Sequence record: MT833282.1
Source of the DNA: Escherichia coli phage vB_EcoM_Shy
Reading direction: 5' to 3' (one strand)
DNA: 64,000 bases
Made by a program: the position numbers and the translations under genes
Notes under the pieces: generated by a model
What the model saw: only the letters and a program-made list of their open reading frames with translations
The model's database searches: none
What the model was told of the DNA's origin: nothing
Part shown: positions 21,481-39,369 of the stretch, in pieces
Layout: each line of letters starts with the position of its first letter
Position numbering within the stretch: the first letter of the stretch is position 1

Positions 21481-21531
21481 ATTTTTCTCCTTATAAAATA
21501 AAAAAGGCTCCCGAAGGAGCCTATGAAGATA

Positions 21532-21996
21532 TTACTTTGGGTATACACTGTCAAGATAAATGTCAGCTTCCATTCTACGTCTGTTTTTCAGACCATTTGA
21601 AGTGACCTTCTTACCTTTGACTGTAACCTTGTTCCACCACTGCATAGCTTCTGCACAACCTACCTTGTTACCAGCATTGTGGCGCTTGATAAATGTAGAA
21701 TCCTGCATAGCTGTGATACCGATGTTGTATGTTTCACTTACAAGTGCATCGAACTCATTCTGAGAAGTTGGAGCCTTGATAGCTTTATTCACTGCTGCAA
21801 CAAACTTCTCAACATCTGCGAGAAGATACTGTTCAGCTTGTTCAGCCGTGATTTTCATACCCATCTTAACAGGTTTTCCGTCAATACGGATTGTACCATA
21901 CCCAATTGTTGGGATTCCGGCAGAGTCTTCGTAAGCCTCTAACTTCAGACCTTCAAAGAACTTAATAGCTTCTAAACCTTTTCTTGAGAGTTGCAT
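21532..21996 (-). CDS. endolysin, T4-lysozyme-like (GH24 muramidase)
   Basis: 154-aa ORF; N-terminal EGLKLEAYEDSAGIPTIGYG resembles the T4 lysozyme catalytic region (E..., D, T); NAGN/ETYNIG downstream. Confidence 0.85.
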   Translation of the reverse strand: MQLSRKGLEAIKFFEGLKLEAYEDSAGIPTIGYGTIRIDGKPVKMGMKITAEQAEQYLLADVEKFVAAVNKAIKAPTSQNEFDALVSETYNIGITAMQDSTFIKRHNAGNKVGCAEAMQWWNKVTVKGKKVTSNGLKNRRRMEADIYLDSVYPK

Positions 21997-23381
21997 TATG
22001 CCTCCCCTGCTGGGTTAACTGTAACTGTTGCCGCATTAGATGTTACAGAGCCACCTGCACCAGTCACTACACAAGTGTAGCTTCCTGCATCAGCAGCAGT
22101 TGCACCTTCTTTGGTGTAAGTTGCAGTCGTTGCGTCTGGGATAACTTCCTCACCTTTCTTCCACTGGTAACCTGTTGCACCAGTTGCCACAACATTCAGC
22201 GTTAAGGTCTCACCTTCAGTGATTTCTTGATTGACTGGTTGTTGAGTGATGACTGGAAGAGCATTAACGGTAACAGTTGCAGCATTAGATGTTACTGTTG
22301 TACCACCTGCACCAGTAACTACACAGGTATATGAACCAGCATCGGCAGGGTCTGCTTTAGCTTTCGTGTAAGTTGCACCAGTTGCGCTAGGGATGTTCAC
22401 GTTGTCTTTCTTCCATTGATAACCTGTTGCACCTGTGGCCTCAATACTCAGCGTCAAACTGCCACCTTCATTGACTACTTGGTTAGTTGGCTGCTTGGTA
22501 ATAACTGGCAAAGCATTTACCGTGACAGTTGCAGGGTTAGAAGTAACAGAACCTCCAGCACCAGTTACAACGCAAGTGTAAGAACCTGCATCTGCTGGAA
22601 GCGCACCAGATTTGCTATAGTTAGCATTTGTAGCTGATGGGATGTCAGAGCCATCTTTCTTCCATTGGTAGCCTGTTGCACCTGTTGCAGTAACTGATAA
22701 TTCAATGTTTCCACCTTCATTAATGGTCTGGCTAGAAGGTTGCTGTGTAATCACAGGTAGTGCGTTAACAGTAACCGTTGCCGCATCTGAGGTAACACTT
22801 GTCCCCGCCTCTCCAGATACAACACAAGTGTATGAGCCAGCGTCAGAAGGAACTACAGATTGTTTTGTATAAGTTTCAGATGTGGCACTGGAGATATCCT
22901 CACCATCCTTCTTCCATTGATAACCAGTGGCATTAGTTGCGAGAACGCTTAGGGTAAGTGTTCCACCCTCATTGACTGTTTGGTTTGTCGGTTGCTGAGT
23001 AATTACTGGTGGCTTAATAGCATCCTTCAGCTTAGCATTCAACATTGAAAATGGCTTAACTCTTGCCAACCATTCACAATACACCGTGTCAACGTCTTTA
23101 CCATTGATAATTGCATATTGTAAATCCATGAAGAAGTCAGAAGTTCTCATTTGAGCACCGACGCTGTAAAGCAAATCATCACTAAAAGGAACTTTGTAGT
23201 CTGGTTTGTAGTCAAACTTCTTAACTTCTGCGATATCAGCTTCAGGCCAATATGAGCTATAGGTGAGTGGTAAAATAGCTTCTTGATATGTTCTAAAATC
23301 ATATCTCTTACCAGCCTTTACATTTGCGATGAAGCCCTTCACAAATTCTTTGAAGTCTGGGTAAGTCTTTGCTTTAATCAT
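21996..23381 (-). CDS. Ig-like-domain repeat protein (four tandem Ig-like modules), possibly virion decoration or adhesin
   Basis: 461-aa ORF; about 200-aa N-domain then four repeats of about 90 aa (ALPVITQQP...ATGATGYQWKKDG...DAGSYTCVVTGAGG...ATVTVN), also visible as about 270-bp DNA repeats. Confidence 0.6.
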   Translation of the reverse strand: MIKAKTYPDFKEFVKGFIANVKAGKRYDFRTYQEAILPLTYSSYWPEADIAEVKKFDYKPDYKVPFSDDLLYSVGAQMRTSDFFMDLQYAIINGKDVDTVYCEWLARVKPFSMLNAKLKDAIKPPVITQQPTNQTVNEGGTLTLSVLATNATGYQWKKDGEDISSATSETYTKQSVVPSDAGSYTCVVSGEAGTSVTSDAATVTVNALPVITQQPSSQTINEGGNIELSVTATGATGYQWKKDGSDIPSATNANYSKSGALPADAGSYTCVVTGAGGSVTSNPATVTVNALPVITKQPTNQVVNEGGSLTLSIEATGATGYQWKKDNVNIPSATGATYTKAKADPADAGSYTCVVTGAGGTTVTSNAATVTVNALPVITQQPVNQEITEGETLTLNVVATGATGYQWKKGEEVIPDATTATYTKEGATAADAGSYTCVVTGAGGSVTSNAATVTVNPAGEA

Positions 23382-23749
23382 TTCTTTTTAGCCTCTAAAC
23401 GTGCGTTTAATCTAAAATAGCCTTTATGTTGTGGAGACACATCACCAACAACGATACCTTCAACTTTATAACCTTTACCGATTACATACTGGATATCCAT
23501 AAGAAATGTACCAAGTCCTACAATGTGGAACATTGGATATAATAACTTATCTGAATCTGGGAGATTAATATCTGGGTTGTAGGTAGGTTGTTTACTAGTA
23601 GGTGTAATATCTTCTTCAGGCCATTTACTTAGTCTCCATGTCAAAGGTGTTGGGATAACATCATTAAGATTGTACCTCCCACCATTCTCCACGGAATGGA
23701 TATAGGATTGTAGGAAGCAATAAAAGTCTTTTGCACTCTTAGCTTTCAT
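23378..23749 (-). CDS. paralogue of the N-terminal domain of the Ig-repeat protein
   Basis: 123-aa ORF aligning to the first about 120 aa of the 461-aa neighbour (MKAK..DF..F......V..G.RY...WPE.DI..Y.PD..P.SD.LLY...F.MD.QY.I..G). Confidence 0.5.
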   Translation of the reverse strand: MKAKSAKDFYCFLQSYIHSVENGGRYNLNDVIPTPLTWRLSKWPEEDITPTSKQPTYNPDINLPDSDKLLYPMFHIVGLGTFLMDIQYVIGKGYKVEGIVVGDVSPQHKGYFRLNARLEAKKK

Positions 23750-23796
23750 TAAATATCCTTATAAATAGATAAAGGGGCATTAGCCCCTGTTTATAC

Positions 23797-24387
23797 TTAA
23801 GCTTTGGTCTTAAGTAGGTTCTTAAGTTTTTTGAGATTCATGCTCTCGTCAAACTTAAAACCAAATCCATTGACATAATCAATGAACTCGGATTTCTTAC
23901 TAAGTGATAGCGCGTAACTCATATCAAAGTTATTACTTGTTTCTGCGTCTGGACTAGAGTTCACATCAAATGAAATTTCTGTAGGCTCTTGCTTGCTACT
24001 TCTCATATTATCAATTAATAGGCATGTATAGTTCGCTGGATAGAAGTTTGCACTACCATCAACATACCCATACTTATTGTTGTGAATAAGGTTTGAAAAT
24101 ACCTTAAGAAATGTTTCTGAGTCGTGGCATACAAGTTTGAATTGGCTGCATTCTCCAAGAGCCACTAAAGAATAAGGGCTTTCACTATCAATGTCGTAGT
24201 TTGGATTTGATGTTGTAACCGTCACACGCATCAAGTTATTAGCAATAGTCTTCTGCTTGAAAGAATTTGGGACATAGTGAAGACCTCTATCACACTGATT
24301 AACTAACTCTTTAAGTAGGTCGTTTGCATATGGTGAATTAATTGATACAGAGCCATCACTATTATAGTTAAAACTTACTGTTAACAT
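23797..24387 (-). CDS. hypothetical protein
   Basis: 196-aa ORF. Confidence 0.5.
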   Translation of the reverse strand: MLTVSFNYNSDGSVSINSPYANDLLKELVNQCDRGLHYVPNSFKQKTIANNLMRVTVTTSNPNYDIDSESPYSLVALGECSQFKLVCHDSETFLKVFSNLIHNNKYGYVDGSANFYPANYTCLLIDNMRSSKQEPTEISFDVNSSPDAETSNNFDMSYALSLSKKSEFIDYVNGFGFKFDESMNLKKLKNLLKTKA

Positions 24388-25006: not shown

Positions 25007-25378
25007 ATGAAAAACAGAACAAACAAAGGCCAGTTTAAAAAAGGCCAGTCTGGAAACCCATCTGGAAGACCAAAAGGCTCTCGTAACAAAAGCTCACTTG
25101 TAAAAGCTCAACTGACCATTGATAATTCTGCTGAGTTTGCTGCAAAGTTGTTTGAAGCGATTGTTACAAGGGACGCTGCTAAGCTTGCAGAGTTCGGGTT
25201 AAACACAGATGACGTAACCATCAAGAGCATGATTGAGGTCGGTAAAACCATCTTTACTCACTCAGCAGGTGAGATGAAAGCACTTGCAGCAGACACTAAG
25301 AAGACTCCTGATAATGGTGGTCAGTCACAGACAGATAACAAACCAACGTTCTCTGCTGTAGCGACTCTCAAAAAATAA
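25007..25378 (+). CDS. hypothetical protein with N-terminal basic GQSGNPSGRPKG motif
   Basis: 123-aa ORF with AAGAGG SD; this motif is common in small phage proteins near packaging genes; function unknown. Confidence 0.5.
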   Translation: MKNRTNKGQFKKGQSGNPSGRPKGSRNKSSLVKAQLTIDNSAEFAAKLFEAIVTRDAAKLAEFGLNTDDVTIKSMIEVGKTIFTHSAGEMKALAADTKKTPDNGGQSQTDNKPTFSAVATLKK

Positions 25379-25459
25379 TTTTAAAAGGTGTTGACAGACT
25401 CTACAAAGTTGCTCTAAAGTCTGTCACATCAAACAACAAATGAGAGAAGAGAGTAAAAT

Positions 25460-26875
25460 ATGAGCGAATTATTTAAACATGCGCACCTTCATGCAGGTCG
25501 AACTGAAAATGGTGCTGTAAACCATACTTCATCAATGTCTGCTTTGGTAGACTTCTACAAAGCCGCTGGCTCAAGCCGTAGCAATGTAGAAATCTTACCA
25601 GACCTGTTCTACAAAGCTTTGCGTGAGGATGTTGATGTTGCAGTTCGTATTTTACTGCATATGCGAGATGTACGAGAAGGTATGGGTGAGCGTAAAGCTT
25701 TCCGAACTGTTTTACTTCAAGCAATTGAAGATAAAGTTTTAGAACCTACACAGGTTCTTCGCATTATGGATAAGATTGCAGAACTCGGTCGTTTTGATGA
25801 CTTCAAAATCTTCGTAGGTACTCGTTTTGAGACAGATGCCTTCAAACATTTAGAAGCAGCATTACTAGACCCTGCAACAGCAGGTTTAGCGGCTAAGTGG
25901 TTACCACGAGTAAAACCACGCCACAAACAGTTTGTAAAACGTTTCTGTAAGTTTGCAAACTTAAGTGAGAAGGAGTATCGCACACTGTTATCTGCACTGT
26001 CTGATACGGTTGAGCAAAAAATCTCTGCTAATGAGTTTGGTAAGATTGACTACAGTAAGGTTCCTTCGCTAGCTGCTGCACGTTACCAAAAACTCTTTAA
26101 CCGTAAAGATGGGGAACGTTACAAAGCTTACATCGAGTCACTCTCAAAAGGTGAGGCTAAGATTAACGCTGGTGCTGTTTACCCATATGATGTGATTAAA
26201 TCTATCAAGTATGGTAATGCAGACGTTGCTAATGAGCAGTGGAAAGCACTACCAAACTGGATGGCAGAAGGTGAAAACATCTTGTGTATGACTGATGTTT
26301 CAAGTTCAATGTCTTGGGTGAATCTTGGTTCAATCACTGCCCTTGATATTGGTGTATCACTTGCCTTGTATGTAGCAGAACGTAATACTGGTTGCTTTAA
26401 AGATGAGTTAATGGTCTATTCAACAAGCCCTCATTTCATTGAACTGAGTGGTGATTTACGAAACCGTCATCGTCAGGTAATGCGTCATGTTGAATATGGT
26501 TCAACTAACTTACAAGCAGCTTTTGACCGTATTCTTGAGGTAGGCAAGAGAAACAACTTGACTCAGAAAGATATGCCAAGTAAGCTTATTATCTTCTCTG
26601 ATATGGAGTTTAATCAGGTTGATGGTGCAAATGGTCGTACAAACTTTGAAGCAATTCAGAGTAAGTACAAAAAAGCTGGATACGAAATGCCACAACTAGT
26701 ATTCTGGTACTTAGCAAACCGTAATGGTACTTGCGAAGTATCTGTTAAGGATAATGGTGTAGCAATGGTATCAGGGTTCTCTCCAGCCACTTTAAAAGCT
26801 CTGCTTGGTGGTGAGAAGTTTGACCCAATCAGCGTAATGCTCAAAGCAGTAATGATTGACCGTTACATCTGGTAA
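25460..26875 (+). CDS. vWA-domain protein, TROVE/Ro60-like
   Basis: 471-aa ORF; helical N-region then vWA domain with MIDAS-like DxSxS (ILCMTDVSSSM), GST, IIFSDMEF and C-terminal SGFSPATL, resembling my recollection of the Ro60 vWA region; sits immediately upstream of the tRNA array. Confidence 0.55.
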   Translation: MSELFKHAHLHAGRTENGAVNHTSSMSALVDFYKAAGSSRSNVEILPDLFYKALREDVDVAVRILLHMRDVREGMGERKAFRTVLLQAIEDKVLEPTQVLRIMDKIAELGRFDDFKIFVGTRFETDAFKHLEAALLDPATAGLAAKWLPRVKPRHKQFVKRFCKFANLSEKEYRTLLSALSDTVEQKISANEFGKIDYSKVPSLAAARYQKLFNRKDGERYKAYIESLSKGEAKINAGAVYPYDVIKSIKYGNADVANEQWKALPNWMAEGENILCMTDVSSSMSWVNLGSITALDIGVSLALYVAERNTGCFKDELMVYSTSPHFIELSGDLRNRHRQVMRHVEYGSTNLQAAFDRILEVGKRNNLTQKDMPSKLIIFSDMEFNQVDGANGRTNFEAIQSKYKKAGYEMPQLVFWYLANRNGTCEVSVKDNGVAMVSGFSPATLKALLGGEKFDPISVMLKAVMIDRYIW

Positions 26876-26894
26876 AAAGTTTCAAAAAGGGTAT

Positions 26895-26922
26895 TGACAA
26901 TGTGTTTGATACCCTTTAATAT
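26895..26922 (+). promoter_or_regulatory. promoter TTGACA-16-TAATAT embedded in 8-bp inverted repeat AAGGGTAT/ATACCCTT
   Basis: promoter hexamers upstream of the tRNA array; palindrome arms flank the -35 and spacer (operator-like). Confidence 0.5.
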
Positions 26923-26984
26923 GTTCTACATAGAAACGAAATGAGAGCTTTTCTAAGATACTGAAAAATATTTTAAAAAAGTTC

Positions 26985-27014
26985 TTGACAACCACTAAAA
27001 AATAATGTTAAAGT
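26985..27014 (+). promoter_or_regulatory. promoter TTGACA-18-TAAAGT with inverted repeat AACCACT/AGTGGTT
   Basis: second promoter about 30 nt upstream of the first tRNA. Confidence 0.45.
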
Positions 27015-27040
27015 GGTTACATAGAGTTTGAAAAGTTTAT

Positions 27041-27117
27041 CTCTGTTTAGCTCAGCTTGGTAGAGCGTTCCGTTTGGGGCGGTAAGGTCGGAGGTTCAAG
27101 TCCTCCAACAGAGACCA
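27041..27117 (+). tRNA. tRNA-Pro (anticodon UGG)
   Basis: hand-folded cloverleaf: acceptor CTCTGTT/AACAGAG, D-arm GCTC..GAGC, anticodon loop TTTGGGG, T-arm GGAGG-TTCAAGT-CCTCC, CCA encoded. Confidence 0.7.
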
Positions 27118-27124
27118 AATTAAT

Positions 27125-27202
27125 GTTCCAGTAGACAAAATGGTAAAGTCACCACTCTTTCAAAGTGGATATTTGAGGGTTCAAATCCCTTCTGGAACGC
27201 CA
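27125..27202 (+). tRNA. tRNA-Glu (anticodon UUC)
   Basis: acceptor GTTCCAG/CTGGAAC, anticodon stem-loop CCACT-CTTTCAA-AGTGG, T-loop TTCAAAT. Confidence 0.7.
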
Positions 27203-27209
27203 GTTTTGA

Positions 27210-27282
27210 CAGAAGACCAATTACAGCAAGTTTAATCTTATTCATCTGACACGAAATCGGACAAAGAAGAGATTTGGTCTGG
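27210..27282 (+). ncRNA. structured spacer element A (CAGAAGACC...TwCAGCAA...GGTCTGG family)
   Basis: conserved 5' CAGAAGACCAATTACAGCAA and 3' TTGGTCTGG forming a 7-bp helix (AGACCAA/TTGGTCT); occupies the whole tRNA-Glu/tRNA-Met spacer. Confidence 0.45.
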
Positions 27283-27293
27283 TCATTAAGAAT

Positions 27294-27370
27294 TGCGGGT
27301 ATAGAGAAAGGGCGTCTCACATGTCTCATTAGCATGGTATCGGCAGGTTCGACTCCTGCACCCGCCTCCA
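27294..27370 (+). tRNA. tRNA-Met-like (anticodon CAU)
   Basis: anticodon stem-loop CATGT-CTCATTA-GCATG, T-arm GCAGG-TTCGACT-CCTGC, acceptor with mismatched first pair; Met versus Ile(CAU) not decidable by eye. Confidence 0.55.
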
Positions 27371-27376
27371 ATTTTG

Positions 27377-27436
27377 CAGAAGACCGTATTCAGCAACAAA
27401 CTACTTTTTGCGGATAAAAGAAAAAACACGGTCTGG
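27377..27436 (+). ncRNA. structured spacer element B (same family)
   Basis: CAGAAGACCGTATTCAGCAA ... ACGGTCTGG; helix AGACCGT/ACGGTCT shows compensatory changes relative to element A. Confidence 0.45.
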
Positions 27437-27447
27437 CAATGTATTAA

Positions 27448-27524
27448 GGTTAGGAAGCACATAAGGTATGTGCGGTCGCCTGTTAAGCGAATGGCACAGG
27501 GTTCGAATCCCTGACTAACCGCCA
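27448..27524 (+). tRNA. tRNA-Asn (anticodon GUU)
   Basis: D-arm GCAC..GTGC, anticodon loop CTGTTAA, T-arm CAGGG-TTCGAAT-CCCTG, CCA encoded. Confidence 0.7.
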
Positions 27525-27595
27525 AATTTAGGAGAGAAGCGATTGCTCACCGATTTGTAAGGTGCAAGTCCTTAGCCTGAATAGAATAATAAAAT

Positions 27596-27683
27596 GTGTC
27601 GTTATCCCGTAGATGGTAGCGGTGGGGACTGTAAATCCCTTGTCATTGAGACTCGGTAGGTTCGACTCCTACACGGCACACCA
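27596..27683 (+). tRNA. tRNA-Tyr (anticodon GUA), long variable arm
   Basis: acceptor GTGTCGT/ACGGCAC, anticodon loop CTGTAAA, 88 nt with extended variable arm, T-loop TTCGACT. Confidence 0.65.
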
Positions 27684-27689
27684 AATAAA

Positions 27690-27767
27690 GGTTATGTAGT
27701 TTAATCTGGTTAAAATACTCCCCTGTCACGGGAGATGATGAGGGTTCAAATCCCTTCGTAACCGCCA
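27690..27767 (+). tRNA. tRNA-Asp (anticodon GUC)
   Basis: acceptor GGTTATG/CGTAACC, anticodon stem-loop CTCCC-CTGTCAC-GGGAG, T-loop TTCAAAT. Confidence 0.7.
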
Positions 27768-27853
27768 AATTATAATAAGTATTTCAAAATGATGTTTGAG
27801 AGGGCTATTTAGCCCCTCCCTTAAAGAGTTCTTACGAGTATTCTTTAAAGGAG

Positions 27854-27926
27854 CAGAAGACCAAATTCAGCAAGAACGTATGAAATTTCAAGCCAATTTA
27901 ATTTTGAAAATTTAAACTTGGTCTGG
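27854..27926 (+). ncRNA. structured spacer element C (same family)
   Basis: CAGAAGACCAAATTCAGCAA ... CTTGGTCTGG, 7-bp helix AGACCAA/TTGGTCT. Confidence 0.45.
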
Positions 27927-27939
27927 CTCAACAAATTTA

Positions 27940-28071
27940 CAGAAGACCGTTTACAGCAAAACTTAAACAATCTATTTCTCCGGTAAAGAAAAGGCGAAGG
28001 TTCGATTCCTTCACTCGGCAGATGTCGAGTTGGTGTAATGGTAGCACTTAAGATGATAAACAATGGTCTGG
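27940..28071 (+). ncRNA. structured element D with circularly permuted tRNA-like domain (Y-RNA-like candidate)
   Basis: 5' CAGAAGACCGTTTACAGCAA and 3' CAATGGTCTGG helix enclose T-arm (GAAGG-TTCGATT-CCTTC, 27996-28012), closed acceptor-like hairpin (ACTCGGC-AGAT-GTCGAGT, 28013-28030) and D-arm (GTGT-AATGGTA-GCAC, 28033-28047); order is T-arm, acceptor, D-arm. Confidence 0.5.
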
Positions 28072-28072
28072 T

Positions 28073-28209
28073 AATTATCTTTGTAGATAAGTTATTAAGC
28101 TTCCCTGTGAGTATGCGACCACAAAGGTGAAAGGGTAGATTCTAGATTTAACCCGAAAAGACACATCGCTACAGACCTTAAGCAAGTCTGGGTAGCTTAT
28201 CTACAAAGA
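28073..28209 (+). ncRNA. long hairpin element E (18-bp perfect inverted repeat enclosing about 100 nt)
   Basis: ATTATCTTTGTAGATAAG (28073-28090) is the exact reverse complement of CTTATCTACAAAGATAAT (28192-28209); interior contains CAGACC..GTCTGG hairpin. Confidence 0.45.
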
Positions 28210-28218
28210 TAATTTAAT

Positions 28219-28294
28219 GGAAGTGTAGCAGAATGGTGATGCGGCAGACTTTTAATCTGACAGGCGATGGGTTCGAATCCCTCCACTTCTACCA
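28219..28294 (+). tRNA. tRNA-Lys (anticodon UUU)
   Basis: acceptor GGAAGTG/CACTTCT, anticodon loop CTTTTAA, T-loop TTCGAAT with weak T-stem; CCA encoded. Confidence 0.6.
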
Positions 28295-28298
28295 ATAT

Positions 28299-28375
28299 GG
28301 TTCAGTCGCAGATAAGGTAATGCAGGGGTTTCATAAGCCCTATGAATGTGGGTTCGATTCCCATCTGAACCTCCA
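28299..28375 (+). tRNA. tRNA with anticodon CAU (Met or Ile-lysidine type)
   Basis: acceptor GGTTCAG/CTGAACC, anticodon loop TTCATAA, T-arm GTGGG-TTCGATT-CCCAT. Confidence 0.6.
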
Positions 28376-28376
28376 A

Positions 28377-28452
28377 GCTGGTATAGTTAAGAAGGTTATA
28401 ACACTCCCCTGATAAGGGAATATCGGTGGTTCGATTCCACCTACCAGTACCA
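28377..28452 (+). tRNA. tRNA-Ile (anticodon GAU)
   Basis: anticodon loop CTGATAA, T-arm GGTGG-TTCGATT-CCACC, acceptor GCTGGTA/TACCAGT. Confidence 0.65.
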
Positions 28453-28476
28453 ATCTCAATAAAGTTGTTGACATTA

Positions 28477-28505
28477 AGATGTGACCACTTTATAGTAACT
28501 AAAAT
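28477..28505 (+). promoter_or_regulatory. sigma70-like promoter TTGACA-17-TATAGT inside the tRNA array
   Basis: consensus -35 and good -10; downstream 280 nt has no tRNA and no credible ORF. Confidence 0.5.
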
Positions 28506-28787
28506 ACTTCATAATATGTATAATTCAAACACCAATACATGAGCGTTAGACGTAACACAATGTGGGGAAATTTGTTGTACATATTCTGAATAGTTTTCGT
28601 TGCGTAGCGTCTATTTTGCAAATTTAAAATAAATGCAAACGACAATGTTTTCTGGCAGTAGCTTGATAGGCTAAACACCAGTGAGGTCTTCCAATCCCTC
28701 ATCAAAGAATTTGGCGTACTCGCCCACGGTATGATTAATAAGGTGGGCATCTTTAAGGGCTTTCTAAGAGAGCCTTTAAAGATTAAT

Positions 28788-28864
28788 GCACCCTTAGTTC
28801 AATTGGATAGAGCAACGGTCTTCTAAATCGTTAGTTACAGGTTCGAATCCTGTAGGGTGTGCCA
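28788..28864 (+). tRNA. tRNA-Arg (anticodon UCU)
   Basis: anticodon stem-loop ACGGT-CTTCTAA-ATCGT, T-arm ACAGG-TTCGAAT-CCTGT, acceptor GCACCCT/AGGGTGT. Confidence 0.65.
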
Positions 28865-29006
28865 AATAGTTAGCAGATTGCTTAGACGACCTTATCGGGT
28901 CTCCGTGTAAGGAGGTGGTCTGTATCTCATGTTTTCCAGAACATGTAAATAATCTGAGAAGGGGCTTTACAGTGTTGCGAAAATACGGTAAGCTTCGAAT
29001 TATAGT

Positions 29007-29089
29007 GTGGGACGATGTTAAGACTCTAAGGCATGAGCAACGGCCTCCAAAACCGTTTCAAAGGGGTTCAACTCCTCCGTCCCATGCCA
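29007..29089 (+). tRNA. atypical tRNA-like gene, possibly tRNA-Trp (anticodon CCA)
   Basis: acceptor GTGGGAC/GTCCCAT and T-arm AGGGG-TTCAACT-CCTCC fold well; anticodon loop CTCCAAA; D region is enlarged (83 nt total) so the call is tentative. Confidence 0.4.
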
Positions 29090-29102
29090 AAGTCTTATTA
29101 GG

Positions 29103-29190
29103 GGTAGGTAGCGGCTAATGGTAGCCAAACTGTCTTGAAAACAGTTGCCACTGTAGAGATACGGTGAGGGTTCGACTCCTTTACTTACCG
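29103..29190 (+). tRNA. tRNA-Ser (anticodon UGA), long variable arm
   Basis: anticodon stem-loop ACTGT-CTTGAAA-ACAGT, long variable arm, T-loop TTCGACT, acceptor GGTAGGT/ACTTACC. Confidence 0.65.
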
Positions 29191-29348
29191 CCTAATAAGA
29201 TTTTACACCGTCCATGCTTGCTCGCATTTTCGGTTTATCCCTCGTGTATTGTCGTACACACTGATAAAGCACCTAGTAGGTGTCACGGAGAAGAGATAAT
29301 ATCAAGCTCTCCAAAGGTTCTAGTCACCGGATTAAACAAGACTATGCA

Positions 29349-29370
29349 AAGACCTATTTAGGTCTTTTTA
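29349..29370 (+). terminator. rho-independent terminator-like hairpin within the tRNA array
   Basis: AAGACC-TATTTA-GGTCTT followed by TTTTT. Confidence 0.45.
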
Positions 29371-29448
29371 GAGGGCTTCTAAGGTTATTACAGCTTGTTG
29401 TGGAACCTTGTTGCTTAGGTTCTTAGAAGTTCTCTAAAAAGATTTAAT

Positions 29449-29526
29449 GGGAGATTGACGGTAATTGGTAAACCTACCATCCTTAGAAGTTGGTGTTTGA
29501 GGGTTCGAATCCCTTGTCTCCTACCA
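29449..29526 (+). tRNA. tRNA with Leu-type anticodon UAG, short variable arm (tentative Leu)
   Basis: acceptor GGGAGAT/GTCTCCT (two G-U pairs), anticodon loop CTTAGAA, T-arm GAGGG-TTCGAAT-CCCTT, A73, CCA encoded. Confidence 0.5.
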
Positions 29527-29533
29527 AATTAAT

Positions 29534-29609
29534 GCAGGTGTAGCAAAATGGTTATGCGGCTGACTCTTAATCAGTAAGACGATGGGTTCGAATCCCTCCA
29601 CCTGTACCA
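29534..29609 (+). tRNA. tRNA-Lys (anticodon CUU)
   Basis: paralogue of the 28219 tRNA; anticodon stem-loop CTGA-CTCTTAA-TCAG; same unusual T-stem. Confidence 0.6.
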
Positions 29610-29615
29610 AGCATT

Positions 29616-29692
29616 GGGGTCATAGTTTATATGGTTAAAATTCGAGTTTTGCAAACTTGGGAACTGAGTTCAATTCTCAGTGACTCCACCAA
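29616..29692 (+). tRNA. tRNA-Ala (anticodon UGC)
   Basis: acceptor GGGGTCA/TGACTCC with G3-U70, anticodon loop TTTGCAA, T-arm CTGAG-TTCAATT-CTCAG. Confidence 0.7.
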
Positions 29693-29698
29693 TTAGCG

Positions 29699-29773
29699 CA
29701 TCCATAGTTTAAACGGGAAAATTACAGTCTTCCAAACTGAGGTTGAGGGTTCGATTCCCTCTGGATGCTCCAA
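29699..29773 (+). tRNA. tRNA-Gly (anticodon UCC)
   Basis: acceptor GCATCCA/TGGATGC, anticodon loop CTTCCAA, T-arm GAGGG-TTCGATT-CCCTC. Confidence 0.7.
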
Positions 29774-29780
29774 ATTAATG

Positions 29781-29856
29781 CTCCTATCGTATAATTGGCT
29801 ATTACAGTTGCCTTGTAAGCAACTTATCAGGGTTCGAATCCTTGTGGGAGCACCAA
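29781..29856 (+). tRNA. tRNA-Thr (anticodon UGU)
   Basis: anticodon stem-loop GTTGC-CTTGTAA-GCAAC, T-loop TTCGAAT, acceptor GCTCCTA/TGGGAGC. Confidence 0.7.
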
Positions 29857-29951
29857 TTCAGAGGTCAAGTGAAAGACCGCTTTGAGTCAACTGAAGACCG
29901 TAACAAATTCCACGGAGTTGAGTTAGCGGCACAACTTCAGACCTCTTTCAT

Positions 29952-30026
29952 ACTCGCTTAGTTTATATGGTAAAACATCACCCTTACAAGATGAAGAAAA
30001 AGGTTCAAGTCCTTTAGTGAGTACCA
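29952..30026 (+). tRNA. tRNA-Val (anticodon UAC)
   Basis: anticodon loop CTTACAA, T-arm AAAGG-TTCAAGT-CCTTT, acceptor ACTCGCT/AGTGAGT. Confidence 0.6.
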
Positions 30027-30027
30027 T

Positions 30028-30105
30028 GTTCCAGTATCCCAATTGGCAGAGGATGCAAGCTCAAACCTTGTACTAGTGACGGTTCGAATCCGTCTTGGAA
30101 CACCA
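30028..30105 (+). tRNA. tRNA with Leu-type anticodon CAA, short variable arm (tentative Leu)
   Basis: acceptor GTTCCAG/TTGGAAC, anticodon stem-loop GCAAG-CTCAAAC-CTTGT, T-arm GACGG-TTCGAAT-CCGTC, A73. Confidence 0.5.
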
Positions 30106-30110
30106 ATTTT

Positions 30111-30186
30111 GCAGGATTAGTTCAAATGGATAGAGCAACAGTTTACGAAGCTGTTAATAGGGGTTCGAATCCCTTATCCTGCGCCA
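30111..30186 (+). tRNA. tRNA-Arg (anticodon ACG)
   Basis: acceptor GCAGGAT/ATCCTGC, anticodon stem-loop ACAGT-TTACGAA-GCTGT, T-loop TTCGAAT. Confidence 0.7.
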
Positions 30187-30205
30187 ATTTAAAGAGGCTA
30201 TTTAG

Positions 30206-30763
30206 ATGAGATATTTGAAGTATGCTTCATGGATTTTCTTAGCTTTGTTAGAGCCATTTGCAGCAATCTTAGCAGTTATCTTAGCACCTTTCGTAGTTCC
30301 ATTTTACAGTGAGAAGAAAGGACACTTACCTTTCGGATTTAGATGGATGGAGACATATGACAACCCTATTGATGGTGATGAAGGTCATATCGAACGATGG
30401 GCTAAGATTAGAAAGATTGGTAAGCTAGGTGTCTATATGCAGAGAGTCGGATGGCTCTGGAGAAACAAAGCTTATAACTTCTCCTACCATGTGTTAGGAA
30501 GAGATGTAAAAGATGTTACTAAGTGGAAAGGTAATATCAACGTAAGTTCTAACCCTAAAGATAATCAGACAGGTTATCTCCTAATGTGGAACAGTAATGC
30601 TTGGGGATTATTCGCTTTTATCCCATCAATTAAAGTCTTTGGTAAACAATTCTACTGGAGAATTTATGTTGGGTGGAAACTTAAAAGTGTTGTCCCAGAA
30701 GAAAGAGCATTCTCAAGGGAAAGAGTTATGTTGGCATTCTTTATTCATCCACTGAGAAAGTAA
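30206..30763 (+). CDS. membrane protein embedded in the tRNA array
   Basis: 185-aa ORF with AAAGAGG SD; N-terminal TM helix (WIFLALLEPFAAILAVILAPFVV), aromatic-rich. Confidence 0.5.
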   Translation: MRYLKYASWIFLALLEPFAAILAVILAPFVVPFYSEKKGHLPFGFRWMETYDNPIDGDEGHIERWAKIRKIGKLGVYMQRVGWLWRNKAYNFSYHVLGRDVKDVTKWKGNINVSSNPKDNQTGYLLMWNSNAWGLFAFIPSIKVFGKQFYWRIYVGWKLKSVVPEERAFSRERVMLAFFIHPLRK

Positions 30764-30771
30764 AGATTTAA

Positions 30772-30847
30772 AGGGGATTAGTTTACAAGGTTAAAACCTC
30801 GGTCTTTGAAATCGAAGAAGTTGGTTCAATTCCAACATCCCCCGCCA
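30772..30847 (+). tRNA. tRNA-Gln (anticodon UUG)
   Basis: anticodon stem-loop TCGGT-CTTTGAA-ATCGA, T-arm GTTGG-TTCAATT-CCAAC. Confidence 0.6.
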
Positions 30848-30849
30848 AT

Positions 30850-30926
30850 GCTCCATTACTCCAATTGGCAGAGGCCAGACTTAAAATCTGTGTTATGTAT
30901 CGGTTCGAATCCGATATGGAGTACCA
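30850..30926 (+). tRNA. tRNA with Leu-type anticodon UAA, short variable arm (tentative Leu)
   Basis: anticodon loop CTTAAAA, T-arm ATCGG-TTCGAAT-CCGAT, acceptor GCTCCAT/ATGGAGT, A73. Confidence 0.5.
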
Positions 30927-30931
30927 AATTT

Positions 30932-31007
30932 AGCGGTATAGCATAACTGGCAATGCAGCAGTCTCTGAAGCTGTCTTATTAAGGTTCAAATCCTTATGCC
31001 GCTGCCA
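30932..31007 (+). tRNA. tRNA-Gln (anticodon CUG)
   Basis: anticodon stem-loop GCAGT-CTCTGAA-GCTGT, T-loop TTCAAAT, acceptor AGCGGTA/TGCCGCT. Confidence 0.55.
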
Positions 31008-31038
31008 CTTCTAAGGATTCTTACGAGAGTCCTTAAAT

Positions 31039-31114
31039 GTGGCCTTATCATAAACGGTAATGACCCATGCTGTGAACATGGTCTATACGGGTTCAAATCC
31101 CGTAGGTCACCCCA
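31039..31114 (+). tRNA. tRNA-His (anticodon GUG)
   Basis: anticodon stem-loop CCATG-CTGTGAA-CATGG, T-arm ACGGG-TTCAAAT-CCCGT, acceptor GTGGCCT/AGGTCAC. Confidence 0.7.
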
Positions 31115-31119
31115 ATTTA

Positions 31120-31194
31120 TAGTCCAAGTAGCTTATATGGTTAAAGCGCGTGTCTGAAAAACATGAGAAGAGGGTTCAAATCCCACTGGACTAC
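31120..31194 (+). tRNA. tRNA-Phe (anticodon GAA)
   Basis: acceptor TAGTCCA/TGGACTA, anticodon loop CTGAAAA, T-loop TTCAAAT. Confidence 0.6.
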
Positions 31195-31212
31195 CAATTT
31201 CAAAGGTGCTTA

Positions 31213-31947
31213 ATGAAAGAGATGACAGAACAAGGTAAGGAGATTTTTAGTCTCTTAAAAACCGGTAGAGGGTTTTCTAATCCCCTTATTACTGGTGCAG
31301 CAGTTCTCGGTGGAACCGTAGCTGCCTCTACATCACTTGTAAGCTCTATTAGCTCTGTAACAGACCCTACAATAAAGGATAAACTTGTTGCTGCTGGACT
31401 TACAACAGTTCTGCTTAACAGCTTTACAACGAGTCTGACAAGCACTACATCGACTACTAAAACGCTGACAGATTATGGTCAAAAGTCTATTGATGAGTTT
31501 TCATCACGTATGCAGGTAGCAAAAGGATATTCCAATGTTATGGGTGCAGCAGGAGAACAAGTCGGTTGTACGCCATTTAGTGGTATTATGGGCGTTGCTA
31601 CAGAGTATGGTCAAAAAGCTATTGATACGATTAACAGTGCATTAGACGGTGTTAATGATGTATTAAGTGACTTACAAGACGCTATTGACAAAGGTCTTGA
31701 TACTATTTCTGATTTAGCTAACCAAGCTGTTAGTAAGATTAATGAAGGTATCTCGAAGATTACAGCTTATGCAGATGAAGTTGTGCAGATGATTGAAGAA
31801 GAAGCTGCCCTTATTGCAGAGTACCTTAAAACGAATATCAATGGGTTCTTAGCAGGTATCTTACCAGACTGGTTTGATGATGCTTGTAAAACTGGTGTAA
31901 TTGATACTATTGCAACACCAGAAATGAAGAACGCATTACAGAAATAA
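31213..31947 (+). CDS. hypothetical Ser/Thr-rich protein
   Basis: start re-assigned to ATG 31213 (the track start at 31150 lies inside tRNA-Phe); low-complexity S/T-rich centre; stop 1 nt before tRNA-Ser. Confidence 0.5.
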   Translation: MKEMTEQGKEIFSLLKTGRGFSNPLITGAAVLGGTVAASTSLVSSISSVTDPTIKDKLVAAGLTTVLLNSFTTSLTSTTSTTKTLTDYGQKSIDEFSSRMQVAKGYSNVMGAAGEQVGCTPFSGIMGVATEYGQKAIDTINSALDGVNDVLSDLQDAIDKGLDTISDLANQAVSKINEGISKITAYADEVVQMIEEEAALIAEYLKTNINGFLAGILPDWFDDACKTGVIDTIATPEMKNALQK

Positions 31948-31948
31948 T

Positions 31949-32041
31949 GGAAGATTAACCCTAAAAGGTAAGGGAGCAGTTTGCTAAACTGCCAGTAGCT
32001 GAGAAATCGGTGTACCAGTTCAAGTCTGGTATCTTCCTCCA
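31949..32041 (+). tRNA. tRNA-Ser (anticodon GCU), long variable arm
   Basis: acceptor GGAAGAT/ATCTTCC, anticodon stem-loop GCAGT-TTGCTAA-ACTGC, long variable arm, T-arm ACCAG-TTCAAGT-CTGGT. Confidence 0.75.
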
Positions 32042-32045
32042 ATTT

Positions 32046-32121
32046 GAATCCGTGACAGAAATGGCTATGTACCTGTCTGCAAAACAGGTTTATAAGGGTT
32101 CGAGTCCCTTCGGATTCTCCA
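32046..32121 (+). tRNA. tRNA-Cys (anticodon GCA)
   Basis: acceptor GAATCCG/CGGATTC, anticodon stem-loop CCTGT-CTGCAAA-ACAGG, T-arm AAGGG-TTCGAGT-CCCTT. Confidence 0.75.
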
Positions 32122-38262: not shown

Positions 38263-39369
38263 ATGTTGACTAATTCTGAAAAAAGCAGATTTTTCCTTGC
38301 TGACCTGACTGGTGAAGTCCAGTCTATCCCAAATACTTATGGGTATATTTCCAACTTAGGTCTGTTCCGTTCAGCACCAATCACCCAAACTACTTTCCTT
38401 ATGGATTTGACTGATTGGGATGTTAGCTTGCTTGATGCGGTAGACCGTGATAGCCGTAAAGCAGAGACTAGCGCACCTGAGCGTGTTCGTCAAATCAGCT
38501 TCCCAATGATGTACTTCAAAGAAGTTGAAAGCATTACTCCTGATGAAATTCAGGGTGTACGTCAGCCAGGCACTGCAAACGAACTGACTACTGAAGCTGT
38601 AGTACGTGCTAAGAAGCTGATGAAGATTCGTACCAAGTTCGATATTACTCGTGAGTTCCTGTTTATGCAAGCTCTGAAGGGTAAAGTTGTTGATGCTCGT
38701 GGTACTCTGTATGCTGACCTGTACAAGCAGTTCGACGTTGAGAAGAAGACTGTTTACTTCGACCTTGACAACCCTAATGCTGACATCGACGCTTCTATTG
38801 AAGAACTGCGTATGCACATGGAAGACGAAGCTAAGACTGGCACTGTAATCAACGGTGAAGAAATTCACGTAGTTGTTGACCGTGTATTCTTCAGCAAGCT
38901 GACTAAACACCCTAAGATTCGTGATGCCTATCTTGCACAGCAGACCCCACTGGCTTGGCAACAGATTACTGGTTCTCTGAGAACTGGTGGTACTGACGGC
39001 GTTCAGGCTCACATGAACACTTTCTACTACGGTGGTGTTAAGTTTGTCCAGTACAACGGTAAGTTCAAAGACAAGCGTGGTAAGGTTCATACTCTGGTGA
39101 GCATTGATGGTGCTGGTGCAGAGGTTGGTGTAGGACACGCTTTCCCTAACGTTTCTATGCTGGGTGAAGCAAACAACATCTTCGAAGTGGCTTATGGCCC
39201 ATGCCCTAAGATGGGTTACGCAAATACACTTGGTCAGGAACTGTATGTATTCGAATACGAAAAAGACCGTGATGAAGGTATTGACTTCGAAGCTCACTCT
39301 TACATGCTGCCATACTGTACTCGTCCTCAGTTGCTGGTAGACGTTCGTTCTGACGCTAAAGACGAATAA
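38263..39369 (+). CDS. major capsid protein
   Basis: 368-aa ORF in the lambda C-D-E-like order after protease and decoration gene. Confidence 0.7.
   Translation: MLTNSEKSRFFLADLTGEVQSIPNTYGYISNLGLFRSAPITQTTFLMDLTDWDVSLLDAVDRDSRKAETSAPERVRQISFPMMYFKEVESITPDEIQGVRQPGTANELTTEAVVRAKKLMKIRTKFDITREFLFMQALKGKVVDARGTLYADLYKQFDVEKKTVYFDLDNPNADIDASIEELRMHMEDEAKTGTVINGEEIHVVVDRVFFSKLTKHPKIRDAYLAQQTPLAWQQITGSLRTGGTDGVQAHMNTFYYGGVKFVQYNGKFKDKRGKVHTLVSIDGAGAEVGVGHAFPNVSMLGEANNIFEVAYGPCPKMGYANTLGQELYVFEYEKDRDEGIDFEAHSYMLPYCTRPQLLVDVRSDAKDE

Follow-up and report, generated by a model that had tools for sequence, protein, structure and literature searches.

A Hoc-like capsid decoration protein, identified by homology, and a stand-alone paralogue of its capsid-binding domain in Escherichia coli phage vB_EcoM_Shy

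Homology to solved capsid structures identifies a 461-aa open reading frame of phage vB_EcoM_Shy as Hex-Dec, a Hoc-like decoration protein of capsid hexamer centres, and the 123-aa protein encoded next to it is a true paralogue of the capsid-binding domain (CapBD) alone, on the combined evidence of sequence, fold and phylogeny. Hex-Dec itself is not new: the family has been characterized, cryo-EM structures are available for the proteins of Bas63 and Sf14, and the small paralogue gene is the only part of the locus that has not been studied. What is added here is the recognition that the short Hex-Dec variants can be read as in-register internal deletion chimeras, and that the 123-aa gene is an ancient, selected and late-expressed copy of the CapBD. 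An explanation that combines the Hex-Dec identity, module deletions, and a paralogue derived by CapBD duplication is in our judgement very probably correct; the role proposed for the paralogue below is much more tentative.

The DNA analysed (the window) is a 64,000-nucleotide stretch from the genome of a Felixounavirus (98.7% to phage SME50). The relevant features are as follows.

21505 to 21522, minus strand: terminator-like hairpin with T-run, 3' of the endolysin gene (consensus match only)
21532 to 21996, minus strand: endolysin (Phage_lysozyme; Pfam PF00959, E 2.5e-40), third and last gene of the unit
21996 to 23381, minus strand: Hex-Dec, 461 aa, CapBD plus four Ig modules (open reading frame, PDB and PHROG matches)
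23378 to 23749, minus strand: stand-alone CapBD paralogue, 123 aa (open reading frame, BLASTP, PHROG, AF2 model, Foldseek, dN/dS)
23392 to 23395, minus strand: GAGG Shine-Dalgarno motif of Hex-Dec, within the 3' end of the paralogue gene
23773 to 23788, minus strand: terminator-like G+C hairpin between the paralogue gene and the 196-aa gene upstream (consensus match only)
38263 to 39369, plus strand: major capsid protein (MCP), binding partner of Hex-Dec (9ncf_A, E 1.2e-245)

The coordinates and lengths of the two genes given in an earlier note on this DNA were exact, and it was right that both run in the direction of the endolysin gene and not in that of the structural operon: paralogue, Hex-Dec and endolysin all lie on the minus strand, whereas the structural genes lie on the plus strand, from about 32.5 kb. 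The position of the Hex-Dec gene outside the structural module had already been remarked upon in the Bas63 paper. The stop codon of the paralogue and the start codon of Hex-Dec overlap as ATGA, and the Hex-Dec stop and the endolysin start overlap as TAATG. The GAGG in front of the Hex-Dec start is also present in Felix O1, Phi87, Moogle, SUSP1 and an uncultured lineage, and is retained even in the paralogue pseudogene remnants of SP116 and mio. The sequence suggests that the paralogue and Hex-Dec are probably translationally coupled.

A programmed -1 frameshift at T_AAA_AAG before the paralogue stop would instead generate a CapBD-CapBD-Ig4 fusion, and a -1 slip at AAA-AAG (23384 to 23389, minus strand) does enter the Hex-Dec frame without encountering a stop (GAA ATG ATT). 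However, the heptamer begins with T and not with A, it is confined to Felixounavirus (Moogle has GCT AAG AAA TGA), Hex-Dec of SUSP1 lies in the +1 frame, and the Felix O1 proteome table gives a mass of 31.6 kDa for gp36; this very improbable fusion was rejected. It should be added that the motif TATTTATAAGGA, possibly shared by the stretches after the two flanking hairpins, was dropped as a promoter candidate because it is not enriched (2 matches versus 1.6 expected), that a sigma-70 promoter scan gave scores no better than those of shuffled sequences, and that Pfam and NCBIfam returned no match for the paralogue or for the 196-aa upstream protein.

The sequence of the 461-aa protein is identical to QNR52064.1 of phage vB_EcoM_Shy. 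It matches the Bas63 chain 9ncf_S with an E value of 6.5e-272 (aligned 1-459), the Sf14 gp20 chain 9c2d_S with 7.3e-166, and phrog_3995 with 2e-240, so that the earlier proposal of a decoration or adhesin protein has found its specific form in Hex-Dec, via 9NCF and 9C2D. The protein can be divided as follows.

23013 to 23381, minus strand: CapBD, aa 1-123, with the anchors R79 and R107 (module boundaries)
22761 to 23012, minus strand: Ig module 1, aa 124-207 (Pfam and module alignment)
22512 to 22760, minus strand: Ig module 2, aa 208-290 (Pfam and module alignment)
22260 to 22511, minus strand: Ig module 3, aa 291-374 (module alignment)
22011 to 22259, minus strand: Ig module 4, the tip, aa 375-457 (module alignment)

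The CapBD is 98% identical to that of Bas63 and 85% identical to that of Sf14. In Sf14 gp20, Arg79 and Arg107 form salt bridges that reach Asp221 in three of the hexamer's six MCP subunits (PMC11821841), and both arginines are found in the CapBD of the window, as is Asp221 in its MCP. As to the structural status of the larger protein, which the earlier note had proposed to settle by virion proteomics, the published proteome of Felix O1 contains the 294-aa orthologue with two Ig modules, gp36, in CsCl-purified virions with a peptide coverage of 44%. No evidence against the Hex-Dec assignment was found.

Most GenBank records would make the 461-aa protein a tail protein. The label stands on dozens of records and on phrog_3995, and originated with the 2010 Felix O1 proteome, in which gp36 was named 'major tail protein' once it had been detected in virions. 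It has since been corrected by cryo-EM: the atomic models 9NCF and 9C2D put a near-identical protein at the centre of a capsid hexamer, and the Bas63 paper expressly calls the tail annotation wrong, leaving a tail protein hardly credible. The atomic models, the variation in Ig copy number, the out-of-module gene and the 'tail protein' mis-annotation were all published in 2025, and the practical value of the present assignment is a corrected annotation, capsid decoration protein instead of tail protein.

By homology to Bas63 and Sf14, in whose near-identical proteins this arrangement has been shown, the Hex-Dec monomer would seat its N-terminal CapBD (aa 1 to about 120) in the centre of an MCP hexamer. 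It would do so only on 60 hexamers of the T=9 head, those next to pentamers (at the facet edges), and the 20 hexamers on true three-fold axes would lack it. The four acidic Ig (I-set) modules would extend outward as a flexible fibre, which, by analogy with T4 Hoc, probably allows the phage to attach weakly to surfaces, to mucus or to other particles.

The presence of four Ig-like modules, claimed in the earlier note, was borne out by Pfam, which finds four stretches each of Ig_3 (E 1.5e-43), Ig_2 and I-set; a four-residue tail, AGEA, follows module 4. The details of that description need revision. Modules of about 90 aa, near-identical and visible as DNA repeats of about 270 bp, had been described, but the modules comprise 83-84 aa with a DNA period of 249-252 nt, they share 69-75% of their amino acids and 64-72% of their nucleotides, and no exact DNA word common to them is longer than 17 nt. 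Tandem Repeats Finder reported no array between 20000 and 26000, the repeats having diverged too far at the DNA level, and they were instead defined by a repeat search and a protein-level module alignment. Module 1 is 92-95% identical to its orthologues in SME50, Felix O1, Phi87 and Bas63. Modules 1, 2 and 4 are 92-95% identical to those of Bas63, but module 3, which is missing in relatives with three Ig modules such as UAB_Phi87, is just 72% identical to its Bas63 counterpart. The C-terminal half of module 4 is retained in all shorter variants examined.

The earlier note had called this architecture recombination-prone and had proposed a comparison of copy number among isolates. That comparison bore the view out despite the low DNA identity of the repeats: relatives have one, two, three or four Ig modules, and Hex-Dec accordingly measures 210 aa in SP116, 294 aa in Felix O1 and mio, 377 aa in Phi87 and 461 aa in the window. 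Among 51 felixounavirus records sampled at even spacing, in which copy number was taken from length deficits in megablast matches, the deficits were 0 and approximately 252, 501 and 753 nt, corresponding to roughly 3, 20, 19 and 9 records with four, three, two and one modules, respectively. When the CapBD was used as the query of a word-indexed protein search, most of the clusters retrieved were of the 210-aa (one-Ig) form, and the search was unusable as a census. The second module of Felix O1 and mio consists of the N-terminal half of module 2 fused to the C-terminal half of module 4, the sole module of SP116 is module 1 fused to module 4, and the junctions fall in the conserved motifs ATGATGYQWKK and TYTK. 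Judged from these alignments, the short variants are chimeras left by internal deletions that kept the modules in register. The beginning of module 1 is always retained, and so is the tip module's C-terminal half, which argues for deletion from a multi-module ancestor and not for repeated gain. Module number shifts by in-register deletions between modules.

That the 123-aa gene is a paralogue of the N-terminal domain, arisen by duplication, had also been proposed, and sequence, fold and phylogeny agree on it. The 123-aa protein aligns with aa 1-119 only of the 461-aa protein (BLASTP, 36% identity over 121 aa, E 1e-16), it matches 9ncf_S in a phmmer search (E 3.1e-12), and the PHROG cross-matches between it (phrog_4463) and Hex-Dec are reciprocal. 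Its AF2 model, which is of modest confidence (pLDDT 63, pTM 0.66), matches the experimental structures in Foldseek with TM scores of 0.60 for 9c2d_S and 0.62 for 9ncf_S over 119 columns, the modelled parts of these chains comprising 120 and 122 residues, respectively. Counterparts are Felix O1 ORF37, Sf14 gp21 and bas63_0125; the family has a length of 122-124 aa throughout and has 23 invariant columns in common with the CapBD. Beyond the two solved chains, the Foldseek search of the PDB with the paralogue model gave no further match below E 0.1, fold searches of the PDB and BFVD at E < 0.001 found ounavirus CapBD proteins only, and an exhaustive profile search retrieved just 12 clusters among 1.84 billion representatives. 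Thus, no homologue outside this group of phages was found in these searches that would hint at the function of the paralogue.

The paralogue differs from the CapBD at the very positions that anchor Hex-Dec. An invariant Gly (VGLG) occupies the R79 column, Gln or His the R107 column (a few members have Arg), and also altered is [RK]x[KR]P[FY], a motif that every display-bearing CapBD has. Past the CapBD the protein continues for 3-4 residues and has no displayed C-terminal module. The gene very probably arose when the part of Hex-Dec that encodes the CapBD was duplicated in tandem, and its product keeps the predicted CapBD fold but has lost both Arg anchors. The earlier idea of an alternative anchor found no support, as the paralogue lacks a cargo and both arginines and is unreported in the virion studies considered below.

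One might ask whether the 123-aa open reading frame is simply a decaying, functionless remnant of the duplication, and the gene has indeed been lost in some isolates: in about 19 of 252 related genomes (about 7%), including the SP116/mio lineage, only a pseudogene remnant is present, and it follows that the paralogue is dispensable for plaque formation. A remnant is nevertheless very unlikely. The paralogue has dN/dS values of 0.09-0.16, indicative of purifying selection; it is intact, beside Hex-Dec, in three genera and in a deeper uncultured lineage, with a gene order common to Felix O1, Moogle, SUSP1, Sf14, Bas63 and an uncultured 87-kb ounavirus; its length and the 23 columns are conserved; and in Felix O1 the transcription of ORF36 and ORF37 peaks at 60 min, alongside the morphogenesis genes. 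Identity to the uncultured deep lineage is 45% for the paralogue versus 59% for the CapBD, and the paralogue is, by this comparison of sequences, the faster evolving of the two. Kolesnikvirus, unlike the window, has no stand-alone paralogue, and its Hex-Dec gene directly follows the upstream gene, which indicates that the paralogue is derived.

None of the virion studies of Felix O1, VpaE1 and Sf14 reports the paralogue, a statement that refers to published lists and not to raw mass spectrometry data. The published virion protein list of the 2010 Felix O1 study does not include ORF37; in the VpaE1 study, proteins detected by mass spectrometry were marked structural and ORF40c stayed 'hypothetical'; and the Sf14 paper (PMC11821841) nowhere mentions gp21. 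Unoccupied hexamers are without density in the cryo-EM maps of both Bas63 and Sf14. Both structural papers are silent on the paralogue, and a literature search found no discussion of it.

Our leading, though tentative, reading is that the paralogue might be a non-essential, low-affinity or transient and fibre-less binder of hexamer centres, a placeholder or competitor of Hex-Dec, which would act during head maturation and not be retained in purified virions. The loss of both anchor arginines counts against a placeholder, as do the modest AF2 confidence, the missing density on unoccupied hexamers, the virion lists and the pseudogene remnants in related genomes. It is possible, if doubtful, that the paralogue is a head-assembly accessory that sets the place or timing of Hex-Dec binding, or fills the other 20 hexamers and is lost on purification. 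A literature search found no description of a dedicated 'bald' competitor of a Hoc-like protein. If true, such an accessory could help to account for the presence of fibres on just 60 of the 80 hexamers.

A putative role in the cytoplasm and away from the capsid, as a chaperone that masks the CapBD of Hex-Dec until expansion or as a decoy for a host factor that recognizes the CapBD, would fit the loss of the Arg pair and of the [RK]x[KR]P[FY] motif from a retained core, the silence of the virion studies, the tight linkage to Hex-Dec across deep divergence, and the faster evolution noted above. It is unlikely, however, as the CapBD is not known to be sensed by any defence system, and Hex-Dec works without the paralogue in the SP116/mio lineage and in Kolesnikvirus. 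Distinctly improbable is a second resident decoration protein, fibre-less and bound to the 20 true-three-fold hexamers or to vertex-specific sites, which would have been overlooked through icosahedral averaging of an on-axis monomer or shed during CsCl purification. The CapBD fold, late co-expression and probable translational coupling with Hex-Dec would agree with such a resident, and in Sf14 Asp221 is presented differently on true-three-fold hexamers (PMC11821841), to which the altered contacts of the paralogue could fit. Yet neither cryo-EM study has density there although the genes of Bas63 and Sf14 are intact, lower-copy baseplate proteins were found in the virion studies that do not report the paralogue, and the gene is dispensable in the SP116/mio lineage. 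If the paralogue does touch the capsid, as in the placeholder reading that we prefer, it would offer a simple handle on the occupancy of hexamer centres by decoration proteins and possibly a minimal anchor for phage-display engineering in Felix O1-type phages.

The closest known system is Hex-Dec of Bas63 (Escherichia phage JohannRWettstein, Felixounavirus; 9NCF chain S), an end-to-end homologue with a CapBD and four Ig modules, 460 aa long versus 461 aa in the window and encoded in the same order of paralogue, Hex-Dec and endolysin. Sf14 gp20 (Mooglevirus; 9C2D and 9C3A, chain S) resembles the protein of the window in the R79 and R107 of its CapBD and the Asp221 of its MCP, and also adjoins a 122-aa paralogue, gp21, but has three Ig modules instead of four, which are 55-69% identical to those of the window.

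T4 Hoc is likewise a monomer at the hexamer centre with a small capsid-binding domain and a row of Ig-like domains, which forms an acidic fibre, its Ig number differs among relatives, and by analogy the two proteins likely have the same function in adhesion, aggregation or sensing of the environment. However, the domain order is reversed, the CapBD being C-terminal in Hoc and N-terminal in Hex-Dec, and the CapBD of Hoc has a distinct topology and an unrelated sequence; the Bas63 authors likewise describe a topology of its own and minimal conservation of the sequence. Matches to Hoc-like PHROGs (2973, 4069 and 3945) are limited to the Ig region (aa 128-459). Hex-Dec is thus, on present sequence comparisons, a protein that would work like Hoc but stands outside the T4 Hoc family by CapBD homology. 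A stand-alone CapBD paralogue was not found described in the account of Hoc that was compared.

The Ig domain of T5 pb10 also matches the Ig modules of the window (5lxk_A, E 5e-12, Ig part only), but pb10 has a single Ig domain versus four; its likeness to Hex-Dec is drawn from the abstract of PMC5292684 and from the Sf14 paper (PMC11821841). More distant is gp008 of Kolesnikvirus (Erwinia phage M7), which has a CapBD of about 34% identity and is encoded, as in the window, immediately upstream of the endolysin. Its display module, judged by eye from the sequence, looks Big_2-like and not I-set, and a relative of gp008 in BFVD bears the name 'BIG2 domain-containing protein'.

A nucleotide search with the 3.1 kb around the two genes matched 239 phage records, nearly all of them from Felixounavirus or other Ounavirinae, with Escherichia phage SME50 as the top match (98.7% identity). 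The gene order in the window is that of Felix O1: the minus strand encodes, in this order, a 196-aa protein, a 123-aa protein, the Ig protein and the endolysin, and next comes a divergent plus-strand block with a DUF5681 protein, a DUF2828/DUF7788 protein and 26 tRNA genes, after which the structural module begins near 32.5 kb. Both open reading frames under study, of 461 and 123 aa, have exactly the coordinates and lengths of the earlier note.

Features of the locus and of the major capsid protein gene in the window
21996-23381, minus strand: 461-aa open reading frame, the capsid decoration protein Hex-Dec
aa 124-207, 208-290, 291-374 and 375-457 of Hex-Dec: Ig modules 1 to 4
23378-23749, minus strand: 123-aa open reading frame, the stand-alone paralogue
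23773-23788, both strands: G+C hairpin AGGGGC-TAAT-GCCCCT, with a perfect 6-bp stem, separating the 196-aa gene from the paralogue
23797-24387, minus strand: 196-aa protein, phrog_4034, orthologue of Felix O1 ORF38
25007-25378, plus strand: DUF5681 protein, first in the divergent unit (25007-32121) directly opposite Hex-Dec and the paralogue
25460-26875, plus strand: 471-aa DUF2828 and DUF7788 protein, annotated 'RNA-binding protein' or 'vWFA protein' in relatives
27041-32121, plus strand: 26 tRNA genes
38263-39369: major capsid protein (MCP), near-identical to that of Bas63

The 461-aa protein aligns end to end with chain S of PDB entry 9NCF (E 6.5e-272), the 'immunoglobulin-like domain protein' of the Bas63 icosahedral capsid model, and also with chain S of 9C2D/9C3A, which is Sf14 gp20 (E 7.3e-166). 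In the T=9 capsid, occupancy is limited to the pentamer-proximal (facet-edge) hexamers, one per asymmetric unit; the remaining hexamers are without density, and the Ig domains are flexible and not resolved in the Bas63 and Sf14 structures (PMC12609058, PMC11821841). In Sf14, Arg79 and Arg107 form salt bridges to Asp221 in three of the six MCP subunits (PMC11821841). Because both arginines are found in the window's Hex-Dec and Asp221 in its MCP, and because this MCP is nearly identical to that of Bas63, the binding mechanism can be transferred to the window with confidence. As established by homology, Hex-Dec would form an N-terminal plug in the hexamer centre, held by Arg-Asp salt bridges and present in 60 copies per head, with its four-Ig fibre directed outward.

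The Felix O1 orthologue, ORF36 (294 aa), had been found at 44% coverage in virions purified with CsCl and was at that time named 'major tail protein' (Felix O1 proteome), which gave rise to the erroneous 'tail protein' label; this label was set right by the Bas63 authors, and it stands on the GenBank deposit of the identical 461-aa sequence from E. coli phage vB_EcoM_Shy. The protein resembles T4 Hoc in function, but its anchor is not homologous to that of Hoc, being N-terminal in a different topology, and 'Hoc-like' PHROG matches are confined to the Ig part. By analogy with Hoc, the fibre may serve in mucus or cell adhesion, or in the control of aggregation.

Pfam detects four stretches each of Ig_3, Ig_2 and I-set (E 1.5e-43 to 3.3e-31). 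Cut at the recurring [L/P]PVIT motif, the modules measure 83-84 aa with a DNA period of 249-252 nt, rather than the roughly 90 aa and 270 bp claimed before, and they are not near-identical, as inter-module identity is 69-75% for protein and 64-72% for DNA. The longest exact DNA word common to two modules is 17 nt, and Tandem Repeats Finder reported no array. The repeats are genuine and far above chance expectation. The Ig part is acidic (pI 4.3) and the domain that binds the capsid (CapBD), at the N-terminus, basic (pI 8.5).

Despite the low DNA identity, the description of the locus as recombination-prone was borne out, since relatives carry one to four modules and in-register deletion chimeras: SP116 has one Ig domain (210 aa), Felix O1 and mio two (294 aa), UAB_Phi87 three (377 aa), and Bas63, SME50 and the window four (460-461 aa). 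In 51 evenly spaced felixounavirus records with both flanks aligned, the locus either equals that of the window in length or falls short of it by about 252, about 501 or about 753 nt; module counts inferred from these lengths are four, three, two and one in about 3, 20, 19 and 9 records, respectively. Modules are orthologous between phages. Phi87 lacks module 3 but has the other three (1, 2 and 4); in Felix O1 and mio the second module is chimeric, being module 2 up to an invariant ATGATGYQWKK and module 4 beyond it, and the sole module of SP116 is module 1 as far as TYTK and module 4 after it. These arrangements are signatures of in-register inter-module deletion, the crossovers lying in the motifs that are most conserved. 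In all variants examined, module 1 keeps its start and the tip module its C-terminal half. The variation from one to four Ig domains has been published, with four only in Bas63 among 18 ICTV-recognised felixounaviruses analysed (Bas63 paper); the chimeric junctions add a little to this picture. Module 3 (22260-22511, minus strand) is 72% identical to its Bas63 counterpart, compared with 92-95% for modules 1, 2 and 4; either it is evolving at a much higher rate, or it came to the two four-module phages from separate sources.

Published work already covers the Ig-repeat protein, its capsid location, the variation in its Ig number and the odd position of its gene. No discussion of the stand-alone paralogue was found in the structural work on Bas63 and Sf14, the paper on Hoc or the genome reports of Felix O1 and VpaE1, and it poses a genuine though modest research question. 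It matches aa 2-119 of the 461-aa protein (36% identity, E 1e-16) and no other part of it, and PHROG families 4463 and 3995, to which the 123-aa and 461-aa proteins belong, cross-match over the same region. In tblastn searches, about 233 of 252 Ounavirinae records, from Felixounavirus, Mooglevirus and Suspvirus, contain it (76-100% identity), always directly upstream of Hex-Dec.

When 1.84 billion representative proteins were searched exhaustively with a profile, only 12 clusters with a CapBD were recovered. One is a stand-alone 122-aa protein (45% identical) of an uncultured 87-kb ounavirus, again in the order 195 aa, 122 aa, a 298-aa Hex-Dec with two Ig domains, and lysozyme. In the others, judged by reading the sequences, the domain is joined to Big_2-like domains (a BFVD relative carries the name BIG2 protein), to another Ig type or to a Lys/Ser-rich tail, so that CapBD appears to be a modular anchor. 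In Kolesnikvirus (Erwinia phage M7), the CapBD-bearing protein follows the upstream gene immediately, without a paralogue, and the stand-alone proteins form a separate clade in a neighbour-joining tree; the paralogue thus goes back to an old tandem duplication, in which the part encoding the anchor was copied.

Several observations indicate that the paralogue is a working gene. Its dN/dS is 0.09-0.16, compared with 0.04-0.06 for CapBD and 0.03-0.11 for the endolysin, which contradicts the notion that it is a dead remnant and makes this highly implausible. The AF2 model predicts two helices and a C-terminal hairpin (pLDDT 63, pTM 0.66); its only PDB matches are 9C2D_S and 9NCF_S (TM 0.60-0.62), and its BFVD matches are ounavirus CapBD proteins only. 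RT-PCR in Felix O1 showed that ORF36 and ORF37, the paralogue, peak at 60 min, as do portal, sheath and fibre genes, and that ORF35 (lysin) and ORF38, on either side of the pair, reach their maximum at 25 min. The paralogue stop overlaps the Hex-Dec start in an ATGA, and a conserved GAGG lies within the paralogue 10-11 nt upstream of that start. The three-gene unit is flanked by terminator-like hairpins; the one at 23773-23788 scores as terminator-like on both strands, with a weak T-run, and is kept in SP116 and mio.

A T_AAA_AAG heptamer (23384-23390, minus strand) just 5' of the paralogue stop would allow a -1 slip into Hex-Dec, yielding a CapBD-CapBD-Ig4 fusion, but the heptamer is not conserved: Mooglevirus lacks it, and Suspvirus has a different frame. 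Such a fusion can hardly be expected. The heptamer was judged a by-product of the Lys-rich C-terminus of the paralogue.

That the paralogue is a resident decoration of the 20 true-three-fold hexamers is quite improbable: in Sf14 and Bas63 its gene is intact, and despite this the free hexamers are without density (PMC12609058, PMC11821841). In the alignment, the paralogue has an invariant Gly at the R79 position and Gln or His at the R107 position, and a motif that every display-bearing CapBD retains, [RK]x[KR]P[FY], is altered. It is absent from the published Felix O1 virion protein list, VpaE1 ORF40c stays 'hypothetical' where MS-detected proteins were labelled structural (VpaE1 study), and the Sf14 paper (PMC11821841), whose structural-protein table marks gp20 as MS-detected, nowhere mentions gp21. 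A cytoplasmic role, as partner or decoy, is unlikely. Our tentative proposal, possible rather than probable, is that the paralogue is a low-affinity, fibre-less hexamer-centre binder, which would be co-produced with Hex-Dec, act as a placeholder or competitor in head maturation, and be lost from purified virions.

About 19 of the 252 records have a Hex-Dec match alone. In SP116 and mio, the start codon of the paralogue is gone, as are about 224 internal nt, and a remnant of about 190 nt survives (2306-2497 and 2307-2497 of sequences L003 and L004, respectively), which retains 60 nt from the 5' end, with the start codon destroyed, and 70 nt from the 3' end. This 3' part contains GAGG, the ribosome-binding site of Hex-Dec, and was probably retained for this reason. 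Loss in these records indicates that the paralogue is dispensable for laboratory growth.

In all Ounavirinae examined, the 196-aa protein, without a match in Pfam and NCBIfam searches, occupies the same place, upstream of either Hex-Dec or the paralogue; its slot in Kolesnikvirus is filled by the 206-aa gp009, a correspondence by position. The linkage of the DUF2828/DUF7788 gene and the tRNA block is kept in Felix O1, Moogle and SUSP1. The felixounavirus locus under study is also present (141710-144309, 88% identity) in the 147-kb record GU169904, 'Staphylococcus phage SA1', probably because that record is an assembly of mixed or chimeric origin; the VpaE1 annotation cites an SA1 protein as the best hit of the paralogue.
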